Part shown: positions 52,845 through 62,150 of the stretch, one piece after another
How the letters are laid out: every line of letters starts with the position of its first letter
Numbering within the stretch: the first letter of the stretch is position 1
Source of the DNA: Dictyostelium discoideum
Taxonomy: Eukaryota
Assembly: GCA_000004695.1 (NCBI GenBank)
Contig: CM000152.2
Coordinates: 6,293,300-6,357,299, forward strand
Direction of reading: 5' to 3'
Length of the DNA: 64,000 bases
Notes under the pieces: generated by a model
Database searches by the model: none
Told to the model about the DNA's origin: nothing
What the model saw: only the letters and a program-made list of their open reading frames with translations
Program-made: the position numbers and the translations under genes

Positions 52845-53684
52845 ATGGAAGAAAAAATTAAATCAAATTTAATTCATTCAAAAACTAATGAAGATATTGA
52901 ATTAATTAAACAAAAATTAAAAGAAGACAGAGAATTATTGGAAAAAGAGAGAGCACAATTTGAAGAGGAAAGAAAGATAATATTTGAAAGTTTAAATAAA
53001 GTAGTTGGATCAGGATCAGCCAATATAACCAAGAATATAGCAAAAGCATTAAAAAAAGCAGAGAAAAAGAATGGAGTTGGAAGTAATTTAAATTTAGCAA
53101 ATAGTAGTAGTGGTAGTAATATAAGTGTATATAATAACAATAACAATAATAATAATAATAATAATAGTAATAACATTGGTACACCATTTAATGTACAACA
53201 TAAAGTTCATGTTGATTTCGATTATAAATGGAGTGGTTGTCAAGATTTAGAACAAGTGTTTTTAATTGATTGTATATTGGGTACAGGTAGTTATGGTACA
53301 GTGTATAAAGCCATTCATAAGGATACAAATTTCGTTTTAGCAATTAAATCCATTCCTATCAAAGAATCTGAAGAGATTGAAAAGGAAATTTCAATTCTAA
53401 AGAAATGTAAATCACAAAATATTGTCTCTTATTTTGGTTCAGGTCAACAGGGTGATAATCTTTGGATTCTTATGGAATATTGTTCAGCAAATTCAATTAG
53501 AGATATGTTGGAATTAACTGAAAAATCTTTAACTGAAAAACAAATTTCTGTAATATTACAACAAGCTTTAAAAGGTTTACATTATTTACATCAATCAAAT
53601 ATTATTCATAGAGATATTAAAGCTGCTAATATTTTAATTAATGAAGATGCAATTGTTAAATTAGCTGGTAAATATTATTATTTT

Positions 53685-53715
<31 letters not shown>

Positions 53716-54782
53716 TATTTATATATATATATTATAATACTAATAATATGTTTTACTGTTATTTTTATTTTAAAAAAGATTTTGGTGTTAGTTCACAATT
53801 AGAAGATAGTTTAAGAGGTGAAGCATCTCAATTGGTTGGTACACCACTTTGGATGGCGCCAGAAATTATTAAACGTCAAAATTATAATAATAAATGTGAT
53901 ATTTGGTCATTAGGTATTACAGCTATTGAGATGGCAGAATCATTTCCACCATTATATACTATGCCACCAACTAGAGCAATGTTAATGATACCAAATAAAC
54001 CACCACCTACTCTTTCAAAACCACATCATTTCTCTAAAGAGTTGAATGATTTCATTGGACAATGTTGTCAAAAGGATCCAGAGAAAAGACCATCAGCAAT
54101 AGAATTATTAACTCATCCATTTTTAGTTCAAAATATATCAACTCCTCAAGAGGTATTAAAACCATTAATTGATGAATGTTTAAAAAAAAGTATTAAAAAA
54201 AAGAAACAATCTCCTAATAATGATCAACCACCACCACCTCAAACACCAAATAAATTATCACCACCCGATACTCCATTACCAAATGTACCAGTACTTGGTA
54301 AAAATCAAGGTTTATTAAATAAAAGTAATGGGATGAAAAAATCACATGGATCATCATTGGATGAAGCAGAATCAATGAACACATTCATTTTAAAGAGTAC
54401 CATTGGTAGTAGTAGTAATGGTAGTAATGATACAGGTGGTGATGATTTCGATTGTGGAACTATGATTTTAAAAGATGATACTTGTATTAATGGTAGTGGT
54501 AATGCTGATAAAATTTCAACCATTCCAGCTTTTATCGCTGCTTTAAATAAATCAAATGGAAAAGTTATAACACAGAATCAACAACAACAACAACAACAAC
54601 CAATAGCATCATCTTTACAACAATCAAATCCAATTGCTTCAATTGTTAATGAAAATCAATATCCAAATACAATTGAAAAAAGAGGTTTGTCTTCAATTAA
54701 TTCAAATAATAGTTTATTAATTGGAAATAGTGGTAATAATAAATCTCAAAATTTTAATAACTTTAATAATAATAATAATAAC

Positions 54783-54850
<68 letters not shown>

Positions 54851-55388
54851 ATTTTTAATAAATCAAATTAAAAAAGAATTAATTTTAGATTTTAATGAAA
54901 ATATGAAACAATATATAAATCAACAATTAACAAATTTAAAAGAAGAAATGTTAAAAGAAATTTCAAAGATTGTAATTGCAAATATACCACAAGCACCTAT
55001 TAAAACTTCACAATCTGTATTCAATCAACAATTATCTGCTGCTGCTATAATTCATCCAATTTCTTCATCATCATCATCATCATCATCTTTTTTAAATTCA
55101 TCTCCATCTTCTTCAAATTCATCTGCTACAATATTTAAAAAATTCCCAAATCCACCTCCAACCCCTGTATTAATAAATAAATTACCACCGTCTCAACAAT
55201 CTACACCTGTAACAACAACAACAACAACTTCATCACCATCACCATCACCATCTCCATCTCCATCTCCATCCCCATCATCACCTTTACCATCATCTTCAAC
55301 TTCAACTGTAAATACACCAAATAAACCACCAATTAATTATAGAAAATCAAAAGAATTAGATTCTACTATTAATATTTTTAATGGATTA

Positions 55389-55424
<36 letters not shown>

Positions 55425-56495
55425 AATAGTAACAATAATAATAATAATAACAATGTAATACAATCACCAAAATTAAACAATAGACCTTTATCACCAACCA
55501 CACCAACTAAACAATTTAATAATCGTCCACCTTCTCCTTCAAAGTTTAATAATCGTCCACCTTCTCCTTCAAAATTTAACAATCGTCCACCTTCTCCTTC
55601 AAATAGACCTTTATCACCAAAAAATTCCTACAACTCTTTAGAGAAATCCAATAATGGTAGTATTAGTAATAATAGACCTTTATCACCAAAAAATTCTTTA
55701 GAGAAATCCACTACTCAAAATAATACTAGTAGTGAAGACATAAGTACTACAACTGTTACAGTTACTAGTGAACAGGGTGGAACACCAATTACTACACCGA
55801 TGGCATTTTTACCAAGACCAAAACCATCACCACCACCTATTCCAATGAATAAATCTTCACCAAAGAGAGCACCATCACCATCTTCAAATAGAAGATTGTC
55901 CTCTTCATTTACTGCTCAATCATCAACAGCCTCCACTATCGCTGCTTTAGGTAAACAATCATCAATGTCCCCAAACTCTCCTCTCATTAAAGAAAGAGTT
56001 CCTCCACCACTTCCACCACCTAGAACTACTATTACTTCAAGCACAAATTCACCAATTAAACCTCTATCACCTTTAAATAAATCTCCAAATTCACCATATG
56101 TACCACCAAGAATAACCACTTCTAATATTAGTAATAATAGTAATATCAATAACAATAATAATAATAATAGTAATAGTAGTAGCAATGGCAGTGGTGGTAC
56201 ACCAATTACATTAAAAAGAGCATCAACTACAATATCACCAATAATGATAAGTAGTAACTCACCAAAAGTAATGGGTTCAAATGTTAATAAACCTCTTGCT
56301 TTATCAAGAAACTCAACTGAAATTAATTTACCTTCATCATCTCCTTCAACCCCTCAAAAACCAAATACACCTTCATCAATTCCAACAACTCCAACAACTC
56401 CAACAACAAATGGTGGTAGTGTTTCAAGTAAATCTTCAACTATTGGTCGAAAAACTGTTTTACAAGTAAAATCTATTTTTAGTCCAAAAAAATAA
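52845..56495 (+). CDS. STE20-family Ser/Thr protein kinase (MST/Hippo-like catalytic domain) of about 1180 aa, exons 52845..53667 and 53779..56495, with a long S/T/P/N-rich C-terminal tail.
   Basis: Kinase subdomains: 'LGTGSYGTVYKAIHKDTNFVLAIK', 'HRDIKAANILI', and 'DFG' split by the intron (donor GCT G|GTAAAT, acceptor AAAAAG|AT TTT GGT). Then 'GTPLWMAPEII', the STE20 signature, 'DIWSLGITAIEMAE' and 'HPF'. The domain is collinear with human MST1/2. The tail has PSPS and 'FNNRPPSPSK' repeats. Confidence 0.85.
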
Positions 56496-56910
56496 ATTAA
56501 AAATAAATAAAAAATATTTTTATTTTTAGTCCAAAAAAACAAATTAATTTATTAACACTTTAAAAAAAAAAAATGGAAAATGAAAATATTTTTTTTTTAA
56601 AACAATCATTTAATTTTATTTATTTCCAACATGGATTTACTTTATTTTTTTTATTTTATTTTATTTTTTTTTTATTTTTTTCAAATAAAAAAAATCTCCA
56701 CCAGGACCTCGTTAATATTTATTTCCAACATGGATTTAGTATATAAATATAACACACAAAAATACATAAAATGATTTTAAATAAAAAAAAAAAATAAAAA
56801 ATAATTATGATTTTTGAATTATTTATTATTATTTTTTTTACTTTTAACCTATAATTTTATTTTTAAAAAAAGAAAAAATTAATCAATTTATTATTGCACA
56901 AAAAATAAAA

Positions 56911-56977
56911 ATGAGATTAATATTGGTATTATTAGTTTTATTATATGTTTCTTTTTTAAATGTAGAGGTAAAGATAA

Positions 56978-57014
<37 letters not shown>

Positions 57015-58124
57015 TTTAAAAGAAATTTGTTTTTTTTTTTTTTAAATTTAAATCTTCCACATTTTTTTTAATTATTAATTTAATGATAATAATTTTAAAA
57101 AATAAACAAATAAAATAGACATGTTATTCAAAAATATTAGAAAATAAATATTATTTAAAATCAACTGAATGTAAAACTTTATCATGTGATGGAATTCAAT
57201 ATTTTATTGGTAGTAGTAATAGTTTTGAAATTGGTAGTACAATTACTATTTGTAATATTAATAATCAAGAACTTGCAAAAGAAAAACCAATTGGTAACCA
57301 ATATTCATCTATTGTGACTGATGTCATTCAAGCAGTTGCCAACTCTGTTCAAACTGCAATGAATAGTGCAGTTTCAACTTATTCTTCATTTAGTGGTAGT
57401 GGTGGTGATGATGATGGTGATGATGATGACGATGATAGTGGTTCTGGTTTATATAAAAGCTCAAGAGAATTATATAAAGGTGGTAATGGTAAGGTTGTTT
57501 CAGAAAAACCAATTATATCATTCGATAAAAAACATACTTCAATTGGATCAGATGTTCTTCAGGCAGTTTCCAACCCTGTACAATCTGCAATGAATGGTGC
57601 AGTTTCAACAATTGCTTCATTAAGTGGTGGTGGTTCAAGCGATGATGATGATGATGGTGCTTTTGTTAAAGGTGGTGATAGCGCTTCCTATAAAGGTGGA
57701 TATGGTAAATCAATATCTGATATTCTTGATTTAATTAGACCACCAAGAAATCATTATGCTAAATGTAATAAAATTCTAACTGTTGGTTTGTATGTAAATT
57801 AGCTATTATTAGTTTTTTATTATTTATTAATTTTTTATTTTTTATTTTTAATTTATATTTAAAATCAGAGGTGAAAAGGAAACTACTGATAGTTCTACTA
57901 TTGATGTATCTAAAAAAGTTTGTATTGATTTGTTTGGAATTGAAGAATTTAAATTAGAGGAACAAAGAATTATTTCAGCTGTTCAATCAACTAAAAATGA
58001 TTGCTTCCCAAATGAAGGTCAATTTTATGTCTCTAAAGAAGAATATAATACAATTATTAAACACAGTCAAATTTTAAGAAACCAATGTCACTTAAAAGGA
58101 AAATGTCAATTCACCAAAATTTAA
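56911..58124 (+). CDS. Secreted, Asp-rich, Cys-containing protein with an internal direct repeat. This is copy 1 of a tandem pair. Exons 56911..56967, 57119..57789 and 57869..58124.
   Basis: Exon 1 'MRLILVLLVLLYVSFLNVE' is a signal peptide ending at the donor |GTAAAG. Exon 2 (acceptor AAATAG|, phase 0) carries two copies of 'DV.QAV.N.VQ.AMN.AVST..S.SGGG..DDD.DDD' and ends at the donor TT|GTATGT. Exon 3 (acceptor ATCAG|) gives '..VCIDLFGIEEFKLEEQRIISAVQSTKNDCFPNEGQFYVSKEEYNTIIKHSQILRNQCHLKGKCQFTKI*'. The 'M' codons in the ORF track at 57314 and 57930 are GTG and TTG, not ATG. Confidence 0.6.
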
Positions 58125-58211
58125 TCAATGTGTTTACTTATTGAAAACTCAATGATAATAAAATTTTAAAAAATCAAAATTACCTAATTTTGCCATTAAA
58201 GTTTTATAGGT

Positions 58212-58261
<50 letters not shown>

Positions 58262-59056
58262 ACAATACTAATAATGTTCAACATTTGTTTTTTGAGTTGA
58301 TGGGATATTTTTGAAAAAAGATAGATTAAAATATCTTGTTATAACATTAAAATAATCTAATTTAATTATTAATGTTTATTCTATTGAAATTTAAAAAGGT
58401 TAATAATTTAAAATTTTATTTTAATTTTTAAGATTTCCCAGATACGACACAAGACTGCAGTAATAGTTCAACATAAAAAAAACATTAATATTTAAAGGTA
58501 TCATTTAAAATTACAAAAAATTGTGCAATTTCAAATTTTAATTTTATTTTTAATATTAAAAACAATATTAGTCAAAAAAAAACAAATTTATTTTACATTT
58601 AAGTTTTAAACTTTTAAAAAAAAATGGAAAATGAAAATATTTTTTTTAAACAATTATTTAATTTTATTTCTAAAATGGATTTAGTATATAACACAAAAAT
58701 AAATAAAATGAATGTAACCATCATGATTTTTGAATTATTTTTTTTTTCTTACTTTTAATCAAAAAAAAAATTGGTGGTAAATACAACAAAAAAGATATTT
58801 CATGAAAAAAAAAAAAAAAAAATTAAAAAAAAAAACAAAATGGTTTGAGTTCATAAAAATCCAATTTTTGGGTTTCGGTATTAAAGAAATCCTGGTAGAG
58901 ATTTTTTTTTTTGAAAAAAAATAAAATAAAATAAAAAAATAAAAAAATAAAAAAATAAAAAAAAAAAAAAGAAGGAATATTTTTTTTTTTTTTCTTTTCC
59001 ATTTAAAAAATATTTTTTTTTTTTATAAATAGAAAACAAATAGGCATAAAAAAAAA

Positions 59057-60298
59057 ATGAGATTAATATTGGTATTATTAGTTTTATTATATGTTTCTTT
59101 TTTAAATGTAGAGGTAAAGATAATAAAATAAAAAAAAAATAAAAAATTGTTTCAAAAAAGAAATTTGTTTTTTTTTTTAAATATTTTTAAATCTTCCACA
59201 TTTTTTTAATTATTAATTTAATGATAATAATTTTAAAAAACAAATTAATAATATAGACATGTTATTCAAAAACATTAGAAAATGAATATTATTTAAAATC
59301 AACTGAATGTAAAACTTTATCATGTGATGGAATTCAATATTTTATTGGTAGTAGTAATAGTTTTGAAGTTGGTAGTACAATTACTATTTGTAATATTAAT
59401 AATCAAGAACTTGCAAAAGAAAAACCAATTGGTAAAAAACATTCATCTATTGGGTCAGACGTCCTTCAAGCAGTTGCCAACTCTGTTCAATCTGCAATGA
59501 ATGGTGTAGTTTCATCTATTGGTTCATTAAGTGGTGGTAGTGGTGGTGATGATGATGGTGATGATGATGACGATGATAGTGGTTCTGGTTTATATAAAAG
59601 CTCAAGAGAATTATATAAAGGTGGTAATGGTAAAGTTGTTTCAGAAAAACCAATTGTATCATTCGATAAAAAACATACTTCAATTGGATCAGATGTTCTT
59701 CAAGCAGTTTCCAACTCTGTACAATCTGCAATGAATGGTGCAGTTTCAACAATTGCTTCATTAAGTGGTGGTGGTTCAAGCGATGATGATGATGATGGTG
59801 CTTTTGTTAAAGGTGGTGATAGCGCTTCCTATAAAGGTGGATATGGTAAATCAATCTCTGATATTCTTGATTTAATTAGACCACCAAGAAATCATTATGC
59901 TAAATGTATTAAAGTTTTAACTGTTAATTTGTATGTAAATTTATTATTATTAGTTTTTTATTATTTATTTATTATATTAATTTTTTATTTATCATTAATT
60001 TATTATTTTTTATTATTAATTTTGTTTTATTTTTAAAATCAGAGGTGAAAAGGAAATTATTGATAGTTCTACTATTGATGTATCCAAAAAAGTTTGTATT
60101 GATTTGTTTGGAATTGAAGAATGTAAATTAGAGGAACAAAGAATTATTTCAGCTGTTCAATCAACTAAAAATGATGGCTTCCCAAATGAAGGTCAATTTT
60201 ATGTCTCTAAAGAAGAATATAATACAATTATTAAACACGGTCAAATTTTAAGAAACCAATGTCACTTAAAAGGAAAATGTCAATTCACCAAAATTTAA
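59057..60298 (+). CDS. Copy 2 of the tandem secreted Asp-rich protein gene, exons 59057..59113, 59257..59930 and 60043..60298.
   Basis: The exon structure and splice sites are the same as in copy 1. The signal peptide and third exon are near-identical. The first half of exon 2 has diverged ('GKKHSSIGSDVLQAVANSVQSAMNGVVSSIGSLSGGSGG' versus 'GNQYSSIVTDVIQAVANSVQTAMNSAVSTYSSFSGSGG'). Confidence 0.6.
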
Positions 60299-60414
60299 TC
60301 AATGTGTTTACTTATTGAAAACTCAATGATAATAAATTTTTCAATAAACCAAAATTACCTAATTTTGCCATAAAAGTTTTATTGGTGTTTTTTTTTATTA
60401 TATTATAATAATAC

Positions 60415-60445
<31 letters not shown>

Positions 60446-61924
60446 ATATTCAACATTTGTTTTTTGAGTTGATGGGATATTTTTTAAAAAAAGATAGGCT
60501 AAAATATCTTATTTTAACATTAAAATAATCTATTTTAATTATTAATGTTTATTCTATTGAAATTTAAAAAGATTATTAATTTATATAAATATTTAAAATA
60601 AATAAAATAAAATAATTTAAAATTTTTTTTTTATTATTAAAAACCAAAATATTAAATTAATTTAAAGATTTCTCAGATACGACACAAGACTGCAATAGTT
60701 TCAAATGAAAAAAAACATTAGTATTTAAAAAAAAGAGGTTGAATATCAAAGTTAAATAAAAAAAGGTATCATATAAAAATATTGTACAATTTTAAAAAAA
60801 AAAAAAAAAATAATTTTTTTTTAAATTTTTAAGATTTCTTTGATGCAATACAAGACTAAAGAGGTTAATAGATTTTAGTATAAATAGTTTTAAAATGTTA
60901 AAAGAAAATTAGTTAAGAAAATAATAAATTAATTAGAAATTAATGAGAAATTAGAAAGAATTAAAGAAAATGCTATACATATAAAACTATAAAACCCTCT
61001 TTTAGAGATATATAAATAATAAAACTTCTTGTATTCGTCTCCTCATTGCTAAATTGTCTTCATTTATTTAAGAATAATTAATAAACATAGTTAAATAATA
61101 AATAAATAATATTATATATAGTATACAACAATACATTCTTTATTATACTTAATAACAACAATAATACCACTCTTAAATGATTCCTGGGAATGTTACAATT
61201 TTTTATATTAAAAACTATATTGTAATGGTTAATAATTATTGAGTTTACAGGACCAATCTTATTGAAAAATCTCTGCACCGCAAAATCATTCAAAAACCTC
61301 TTACCTACATTTAATTCAACCAAATTTTTATTGGCAATATCTTGACCCATCGTCTAAAGAAATAGTAAACTCCATTTCCATCAAAGATTTCATCCAAAAG
61401 TCCATTTGCATTTGGTTATTTTTTTTGTCATTCAATTGTTTACGAACATATATTCATTTGCTTGATGCCTTATTGGAATTCCTTGGAAATAATTATTGCT
61501 TATGATCCCAAGATAATAACAATAATAATATTAGTTATATTATTTTCATTGTTTAATAGTTTTTTTTCGTAATAGAGAATTTAAAAAAAAAGTATATATT
61601 AAAAAAATAAAATTAAAAAACTAAGCTTCAAGAATCAATGATTTTTTTTTTCTTTTTTTTTTTCTATTTTTTTTTCTATTTTTTTTCTATTATTTTTTTT
61701 ATTTTTTTTTGTAGTTTAAATTCACACAACACATAATTTTTAATTAATTTTAATTTTTTTATTTATTTTGTAGTTTGAAATTTGTTTATTTCAAAGAGTT
61801 CACAAAAGTGGTTGCTTTTTTGCTCTTAATTTAATTTTTTTATTTATTTTTAAATTATTATTTCAATTTTTTATATTATTTTTTTTTTCCTATTTTTTTT
61901 TTATATTTCTTTTGTTTAAATAAG

Positions 61925-62150
61925 TTAAAAAAAAAATGAATAACACCAAGATCACATGTCCCATGCCAAAATTAATATGGCTGCTGGAATTAATATGGTA
62001 ATTTTGGCATGGGACTTATGTCTGCTAGAATTACCATATTAATTTCAGCAGCCATATTAATTTTGGCATGCACAGACCAACTATTTTAGGCTGAAATTAA
62101 TATGGCTGCTGAAATTAATATGGTAATTTTGGGCATAGAAATATAAAAAA
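61925..62150. repeat. Palindromic repeat cluster with three copies in forward-reverse-forward order. The 45-nt unit is 'AAATTAATATGGCTGCTGRAATTAATATGGTAATTTTGGCATG' and is itself internally repetitive. A 19-nt 'AATAACACCAAGATCACAT' leader precedes the cluster.
   Basis: Copies lie at about 61947-61995 (forward), 62023-62070 (reverse complement) and 62092-62140 (forward). The leader motif also occurs at 51459-51480. Confidence 0.7.

Follow-up and report, generated by a model that had tools for sequence, protein, structure and literature searches.

Aly proteins are the amoeba lysozymes of Dictyostelium, of which AlyA, AlyB, AlyC and AlyD, each 181 aa long, are the canonical members as described in the account of Mueller et al. 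2005 that is cited in PMC8545105 and PMC13399256. A longer relative, AlyL, corresponds to the N-terminal 84 and the C-terminal 94 residues of AlyA with a 394-residue region between them (Jauslin et al. 2021, PMC8545105). This loop, termed 'ABS', contains four repeats, in each of which an amphipathic helix of about 40 residues comes after some 10 residues that are mostly basic, and the repeats are connected by poly(GS) linkers (PMC8545105). In AlyA, the double mutation E100Q and D109C abolishes lysozyme activity, and AlyL retains the corresponding residues (E496/D505) together with lysozyme activity (PMC8545105). Killing of ingested K. pneumoniae nonetheless depends on the AlyL loop and not on catalysis, as alyL-null cells are rescued by a chimera of AlyA with the loop and also by catalytically dead AlyL (PMC8545105). 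A review of 2026 proposes a search for further proteins with similar domains (PMC13399256). The present work concerns a 64,000-nucleotide stretch of the Dictyostelium discoideum genome (assembly GCA_000004695.1, contig CM000152.2, positions 6,293,300 to 6,357,299, hereafter the window) and, within it, a tandem pair of genes, DDB_G0282893 (copy 1, protein Q54RV2) and DDB_G0282905 (copy 2, protein Q54RV1), which databases label as hypothetical or uncharacterised (chromosome record of 6.36 Mb).

Here, we place this gene pair by profile comparison within the Aly family, as divergent members of it and not as a new protein family, describe the repeat-bearing insertion that splits their Aly domain and the degeneration of their active site, and weigh a non-enzymatic action on bacteria, as in AlyL, against other explanations.

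Ordinary searches gave little indication of this relationship. Single-sequence searching returned only eight relatives, all from Dictyostelium (discoideum strains, citrinum, dimigraforme and firmibasis), and a sequence search of the PDB with the window proteins returned no match. Pfam yielded nothing above its cut-offs for both proteins, an insertion-deleted construct and distant relatives, the only trace being a weak DPBB_1 match in a single Aly relative (P0015, E 2e-4, below cut-off). By searching 1.84 billion representative proteins with a profile of the family, we recovered five further proteins, all matched through the C-terminal module, and outside the family these were exclusively Aly-type proteins. 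The best outside matches were a protein of Acytostelium subglobosum (SAMD00019534_058670, P0013; 4e-20) and a Heterostelium protein annotated as 'lysozyme' (P0014; 6e-8), the latter sharing 62% identity with AlyC of D. discoideum. AlyA (DDB_G0275123) and AlyB fall into the same 90%-identity cluster as AlyC.

Aligning the family profile to a profile of 24 Aly proteins with hhalign extended the match to both ends of the Aly domain. The C-terminal half (AlyA residues ~85-178) matched at 98.8% (E 1e-16) with whole profiles and at 99.4% (E 3e-21) with trimmed halves, and the N-terminal half (AlyA residues ~20-84) at 96% (E 5e-9), while crossed controls pairing N- with C-halves scored 0.2-0.4%. In a joint alignment with the Aly proteins the halves are collinear, so that each window protein appears as one Aly domain broken by one large insertion of ~156 aa; the first half is the N-terminal four-Cys region, and the Asp-rich repeats sit between the halves. 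An earlier reading of this DNA from its letters (the sequence-only reading) did not recognise the family and considered the last 85 aa a possible disulfide-stabilised domain. Both views give way here, as the C-terminal module matches the second half of an Aly-type lysozyme (double-psi beta-barrel, DPBB) domain and is not confined to the last exon, beginning upstream in exon 2 at C235. The four cysteines counted at the C-terminus are indeed present in the exon-3 product; their positions, however, differ between the copies, because copy 1 of the AX4 strain loses an otherwise invariant cysteine (C270F) and gains another (G288C).

Like AlyA, AlyB, AlyC and AlyD, the window proteins have homologous halves, in which conserved Cys, aromatic and Gly residues follow one another in the same order, a C-terminal helix with a Cys-x5-Cys tail, and a signal peptide. 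They differ in sequence (~26-31% identity), in carrying the 156-aa insertion, in lacking the ADxQRFGC and CGWSD motifs and an intact catalytic pair, and in the loss of five N-terminal or core cysteines. It is about evenly balanced whether the pair is AlyE/AlyF of Lamrabet et al. 2020, two consecutive letters as a tandem pair might receive, in which case family membership would already have been catalogued; in the accessible Dictyostelium literature we identified no gene named alyE or alyF. For neither gene did we find a published account of the split domain, of the degenerate catalytic pair or of repeats like those of AlyL.

Structure prediction agrees with this assignment. An AlphaFold2 (AF2) model computed from the joint alignment with Aly proteins reached predicted local distance difference test (pLDDT) values of 81-93 over residues 30-70 and 230-320, and structure comparison detected in the predicted fold a six-stranded barrel with two psi loops, a DPBB. 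The Cys-containing C-terminal module postulated from the sequence is thus retained, with a confidently predicted fold.

We compared the near-invariant positions of the Aly proteins (n=40) with their counterparts in the family and found that structural positions are kept and most polar ones lost. The retained positions comprise seven cysteines, Y40, L42, F64, F71, G94, S111, L118, G146 and F148. By contrast, T43, D67, Q69, R70, P95, G125, W126 and S127 are replaced, and F45, C46, A66, G72 and C73 are replaced or deleted, such that the Aly motifs Y-x-L-T-x-F-C, A-D-x-Q-R-F-G-C, D-x-G-P and C-G-W-S-D are not retained. Among the cysteines, the equivalents of C31, C52, C58, C80, C85, C115 and C124 and the C-terminal pair are kept, whereas C22, C32, C46 and C73 are lost. 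AX4 copy 1 has in addition a glycine at the invariant D92 and a phenylalanine at the invariant C124.

The catalytic residues themselves follow the same course. E100 and D109 of AlyA are invariant in 24/24 Aly proteins aligned, and this Glu and Asp pair is not intact in register in any member of the family. The two columns hold K/D in both window proteins and in other D. discoideum strains, E/S or E/I in D. citrinum, D. dimigraforme and D. firmibasis, and gap/S in the D. firmibasis paralogue P0008, with agreement among three MAFFT modes. We infer from these alignments that the family follows a pseudoenzyme pattern and has probably lost lysozyme activity.

The insertion separates the fourth conserved cysteine (C64 in the window proteins, equivalent to C80) from the fifth (C235, equivalent to C85), which corresponds to AlyA residues 84/85 approximately. 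At the DNA level the internal repeat is present in four 158-nt copies of 79-82% identity, spaced by 231/234 nt, and at the protein level there are two repeats per gene of 77-78 aa each, 67% identical to each other in copy 2 and 52% in copy 1, as anticipated by the sequence-only reading, which had described internal direct repeats ending in Asp runs. Each repeat follows a common grammar: a basic stretch (KEKPIGKKH) leads into a 28-aa amphipathic helix (SSIGSDVLQAVANSVQSAMNGVVSSIGS), followed by SGGSGG, a poly-Asp run (D3GD6 or D5; 5-10 Asp per repeat) and a YKGGxGK segment. The hydrophobic moments of the two helices over 28 aa are 0.34 and 0.32, values reached in 0.08% and 0.14% of shuffles, and AF2 predicts a helix at residues 80-107. 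In D. firmibasis, P0008 carries three near-identical repeats of 74 aa.

These features resemble those described for AlyL. In both, an Aly-type domain is split at the same place (after AlyA residue ~84) by a long, flexible insertion in which a unit of basic stretch, amphipathic helix and Gly/Ser linker is repeated in tandem, and both have a signal peptide. The window proteins differ in the number of repeats and the length of the insertion (two repeats, or three in P0008, and ~156 aa, against four and 394 aa in AlyL), in the poly-Asp runs and YKGGxGK segments, which are not mentioned for AlyL, and in lacking an intact catalytic pair where AlyL keeps E496/D505. The Acytostelium protein P0013 is also interrupted at this site and has a similar tail (ISAVQS..., ...LQNQC...CKYNRK), but its insertion is plain poly-Ser/Gly with neither helices nor Asp runs, and it keeps all Aly-invariant residues including E100 and D109, being otherwise canonical and apparently competent for catalysis. 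This ~70-aa poly-Ser/Gly insertion (alignment A4, columns ~180-330) occupies the loop shared with AlyL and the window family; in dictyostelid Aly proteins this loop may be a hotspot for insertions, whether recurrent or ancestral.

We propose that the split Aly domain, the degenerate active site and the AlyL-like helix insertion equip these proteins for a non-enzymatic action on bacteria, as in AlyL, an explanation that we judge to have an even chance of being right. Under this proposal, and following the AlyL precedent, the proteins would enter the secretory or endolysosomal pathway and act on bacteria without catalysis. The active part would be the amphipathic helices, through their interaction with membranes, and the degenerate barrel would provide a scaffold or a module that binds the wall. 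The poly-Asp runs might, speculatively, form a pH-dependent mask, since with them the protein is calculated to be acidic under neutral conditions and strongly cationic once the pH is 3.5 or lower; the calculated isoelectric point is ~4.9 and the net charge about -8.5 at pH 7 and +26 at pH 3.5, based on simple pKa values that are unreliable for Asp runs. A more elaborate version, a 'catalysis-free' AlyL design, would have the barrel act as carrier or wall-binder and the poly-Asp as an anionic pro-region that is protonated in the very acidic phagosome to release the helices, with the duplication in D. discoideum and the ensuing excess of nonsynonymous over synonymous change in one helix (see below) reflecting diversification of target specificity; we hold this version to be decidedly doubtful.

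Several observations weigh against a non-enzymatic, AlyL-like action. The D. discoideum copies retain D109 and, after a 4-residue deletion, have a Glu beside the E100 column, so that some residual catalysis may persist. It is mainly the canonical Aly sequences of the joint alignment that determine the AF2 fold, AlphaFold run on the 8-sequence family-only alignment gave an unusable model (pLDDT 32), and Foldseek against the PDB returned no significant match. The insertion is likened to the AlyL ABS by its site and by the published description, a likeness that may reflect homology or analogy, and the window repeats depart from that description in being two and not four, in their near-uncharged helices and in their long poly-Asp runs. 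With helices nearly uncharged and the insertion at a net charge of -8 to -10 through its poly-Asp, the region is unlike typical cationic membrane-active peptides. Finally, we found no expression, proteomic, localisation or activity record for either gene in the literature, no mention of them in the supplements of four genome-wide Dictyostelium studies, and no paper on DDB_G0282893, DDB_G0282905, Q54RV2 or Q54RV1.

The fold and the composition of the proteins also fit a different role, one close to the idea of the sequence-only reading that developmental expression should be examined. The window genes might encode non-enzymatic polysaccharide- or Ca2+-binding matrix proteins of development (sheath, stalk or spore coat), similar to expansins or cerato-platanins, DPBB proteins that bind or loosen polysaccharides and do not hydrolyse them; the poly-Asp would bind calcium or matrix. 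Consistent with this, the best structural neighbours of the predicted fold are non-hydrolytic DPBB proteins (kiwellin, expansins, loosenin and cerato-platanins), the catalytic residues are degenerate, the proteins are acidic and Asp-rich, and our searches found the family only in the D. discoideum species group, a lineage in which, according to PMC6198379, extra cell types evolved. However, expansins, kiwellin, cerato-platanin, loosenin and RlpA-like proteins have no detectable sequence relationship to the window proteins and no comparable repeat insertion; the closest sequence relatives are instead bacteriolytic enzymes of the phagocytic pathway, and the insertion has the position and architecture of the AlyL antibacterial loop. 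A weaker point in the same direction is that the gene pair goes without mention in the supplement text of two cell-type RNA-seq marker papers, although that text may be incomplete. We regard a matrix role as rather unlikely.

A second alternative retains catalysis. The window proteins could be still-active peptidoglycan hydrolases with a decorated loop. Their catalytic residues would be D255, at the position of D109, and a Glu adjoining the E100 column, which E245 and E247 flank in the D. discoideum copies. The barrel is under purifying selection (dN/dS, the ratio of nonsynonymous to synonymous substitution rates, is 0.27-0.34 between orthologues over the C-half), and AlyL is active as a lysozyme despite its larger insertion (PMC8545105). 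The pair is not conserved, however, as D. citrinum, D. dimigraforme, D. firmibasis and P0008 have replaced D109 by S or I; eight more invariant polar or aromatic positions are replaced, including D67, Q69, R70 and GWS(D), four residues are deleted before E100, and AX4 copy 1 bears the substitutions at D92 and C124 noted above. Retained hydrolase activity is accordingly quite improbable.

The genes themselves are intact. The sequence is poor in G+C (~22%) and contains poly-Asn tracts, and its introns are short and AT-rich. Explicit three-exon models on the forward strand gave intact open reading frames (ORFs) of 327 aa (copy 1) and 328 aa (copy 2), identical to the AX4 proteins from MRLIL on, and the two tandemly duplicated genes seen in the sequence are real. 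Exon 1 of copy 1 (56911-56967) encodes the signal peptide MRLILVLLVLLYVSFLNVE, is 100% identical to that of copy 2 (59057-59113), and has a start that is kept in all orthologues. Exon 2 of copy 1 (57119-57789), defined by the gene model and the joint Aly alignment, encodes the N-half of the Aly domain (aa 20-72, 57119-57277), the repeat insertion (aa 73-228, 57278-57745) and the beginning of the C-half (aa 229, from 57746); exon 3 (57869-58124, stop codon 58122-58124) encodes the remaining C-half, the C-terminal helix and the Cys pair. Copy 2 is organised likewise, with exon 2 at 59257-59930 (N-half 59257-59415; repeat insertion aa 73-229, 59416-59886; then the start of the C-half) and exon 3, assigned to the C-half by gene model and hhalign, at 60043-60298.

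Splice donors and acceptors have the same position and phase in 8 genes (both copies and 6 from other strains, D. citrinum and D. firmibasis, by inspection of the junctions), which extends to other species the conservation of splice sites noted between the two copies. In all 8, intron 2 splits a Leu codon (TT–GTATGT...AG–A/G, dashes marking the exon boundaries), and ORFs are intact in 8 genes of 4 species.

The hydrophobic, signal-like N-terminus (MRLILVLLVLLYVSFL) recognised from the sequence finds support in its alignment with the signal peptides of Aly lysozymes and forms a helix at residues 2-16 in the AF2 model. By sequence inspection it is the single hydrophobic segment of the window proteins, which have no KDEL and no tail like that for a glycosylphosphatidylinositol (GPI) anchor. 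The AX4 reference models (395 and 356 aa) start further upstream, from 56574 and 58626, with exons beginning MENENIFF. These exons are translated from AT-rich flank (56574-56910 and 58626-59056), differ in length between the copies (68 aa vs 28 aa), occur in none of the orthologue or newer strain models, and precede the position at which Aly signal peptides align; judged from these comparisons, they probably arose in the annotation and conceal the signal peptide. A further annotation problem concerns the D. citrinum orthologue P0005 (379 aa; L001:11253-11931), which is annotated with a low-complexity tail (...SIICGLLNIQ...ISISIS...) and not CQFTKI; by tblastn, D. citrinum DNA keeps the conserved C-terminus up to residue 325, and the annotated tail is probably mis-spliced.

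The window genes evolve under purifying selection. Orthologue dN/dS is 0.30-0.38 within and near D. discoideum and 0.54 to D. firmibasis. Using the neighbouring kinase gene as a control for background divergence, we found between-strain DNA identities of 91-94% for the gene pair and 93-95% for the kinase gene, and as this divergence is close to that of the control, the family is not conspicuously fast-evolving. The suggestion that it is a rapidly evolving secreted family is therefore not sustained for the family as a whole.

Differences between the paralogues are concentrated in one place. Identity between copy 1 and copy 2 is 100% in exon 1, 95.6% in intron 1, 96.0% in exon 2, 93.7% in intron 2 and 97.7% in exon 3. 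Paralogue dN/dS is ~1.1 overall and exceeds 1 only in the insertion (1.2-1.6), and we traced the excess to a single patch of ~40 codons in the first repeat helix (copy 1 aa 77-115, 57290-57406), with 15 nonsynonymous and 2 synonymous changes and a dN/dS of 2.7. Here, copy 1 reads 'NQYSSIVTDVIQ...' where copy 2 has the ancestral-type 'KKHSSIGSDVLQ...'. Other species carry a helix of the copy-2 type, which makes copy 1 the derived one. The divergence, which the sequence-only reading had assigned to the first half of exon 2, is confined to this patch; the first 57 codons of exon 2 contain only 3 residue differences between the copies.

This pattern leaves little room for the notion that the genes are duplicates decaying into pseudogenes, or artefacts of gene prediction. 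The C270F loss and G288C gain in copy 1, the paralogue ratio of ~1.1, the implausible AX4 5' exons and our failure to find transcript evidence would all fit such decay. Set against them are the intact ORFs, the splice sites shared by 8 genes, the low orthologue dN/dS, the origin of the raised paralogue ratio in one patch and the maintenance of both paralogue types in three divergent strains, and we consider decay very unlikely.

The duplication was delimited by blastn. A core block (56901-58410 = 59048-60583; 91.2% over 1553 columns) is accompanied by a collinear 5' flank piece (56544-56621 = 58599-58669, 87%) and a collinear 3' flank piece (58410-58496 = 60646-60729, 85%), defining unit 1 at 56544-58496 and unit 2 at 58599-60729, both on the forward strand and each comprising 5' flank, gene copy and 3' flank. 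The core is ~1.55 kb and the duplication period 2.05-2.24 kb, in agreement with the repeated unit of ~2.15 kb first noticed in the sequence. A 28-nt 3'-flank motif (TAAGATTTCCCAGATACGACACAAGACT) follows each gene on the forward strand (58429-58456 and 60664-60691) and recurs at 60830-60857, where chance would be expected to produce none; the third, partial flank copy reported near 60.83 kb is thus real, if very short, this degenerate copy being only ~30-45 nt long. As the motif has no match in other species, we read it as a remnant of the duplication boundary and not as a functional element.

The most rearranged part of the duplication is formed by the promoter regions. A 77-nt segment of the copy-1 5' flank (56641-56717) is inverted in the copy-2 5' flank (58879-58959; opposite orientations, 85% by blastn), and 'TTTATTTCCAACATGGATTTA' is locally duplicated in copy 1 (~56621 and 56718). 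A tRNA scan found none in the window, and Rfam found no family inside the duplication units.

In D. citrinum and D. firmibasis a single gene copy lies downstream of the same kinase gene, and three other D. discoideum assemblies (L003, L004 and L005) carry the two genes next to each other and arranged alike, with the NQY type upstream and the KKH type downstream. From this we conclude that the duplication is genuine and restricted to D. discoideum; the collapse to one copy on re-assembly that had been considered as a risk is not seen. That the duplication is an assembly artefact of one true copy is next to impossible, for although one new assembly of a near-identical strain breaks in copy 2 at (GAT)n and runs into low-complexity junk, the adjacent copies recur in those three independent assemblies and differ from each other by 39 substitutions (33 exonic) and many intron and flank indels.

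That break lies at L005:12650-13100, where the sequence passes from an Asp-coding (GAT)n run within copy 2 into (GGT)n, a long T run and (GA)n, and it looks like an assembly artefact at a chromosome end; because of it, the annotated 129-aa protein P0010 is 'partial'. The flanks in L005 are 100% identical to the window. L005 copy 1 has copy-2 sequence at every informative site corresponding to 57768-57949 (forward strand) and copy-1 sequence elsewhere, and this segment represents either clean gene conversion or a mistake in one of the two assemblies. The locus is ~4-19 kb from a contig or chromosome end in each of the five other assemblies (L001-L005), which suggests that its position is conserved as subtelomeric. 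An rve-integrase retroelement lies directly downstream of the locus in L004.

On either side of the pair, the window holds two further elements. Upstream (52845-56495, forward strand) is the large Ser/Thr protein-kinase gene used as a control above, which consists of two long ORFs with one short intron near 53.7 kb between them, has poly-Asn/Gln and Pro/Ser/Thr-rich tails, and is syntenic in all species examined. Downstream by ~1.7 kb is a long near-perfect hairpin (61950-62135) that matches Rfam RF03716 (mir-7131 precursor) at 61974-62060 on both strands (96.2 bits against a gathering score of 74, E 1e-21), with a partial second copy of one arm at ~62094-62135. RF03716/mir-7131 is presumably a known Dictyostelium microRNA family.

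The assignment corrects the database record, in that two proteins labelled hypothetical and unmatched in Pfam can now be assigned to a family and a predicted fold. The family relationship points toward the bacterial-killing and lysozyme arsenal of the amoeba rather than toward a prespore or prestalk role. With the same scaffold and insertion site as AlyL, fewer repeats, added poly-Asp and a degenerate active site, the gene pair is a candidate for the proteins with similar domains called for in PMC13399256, and it could show whether the design of an enzyme scaffold plus a membrane-active loop recurs and can dispense with the enzyme.

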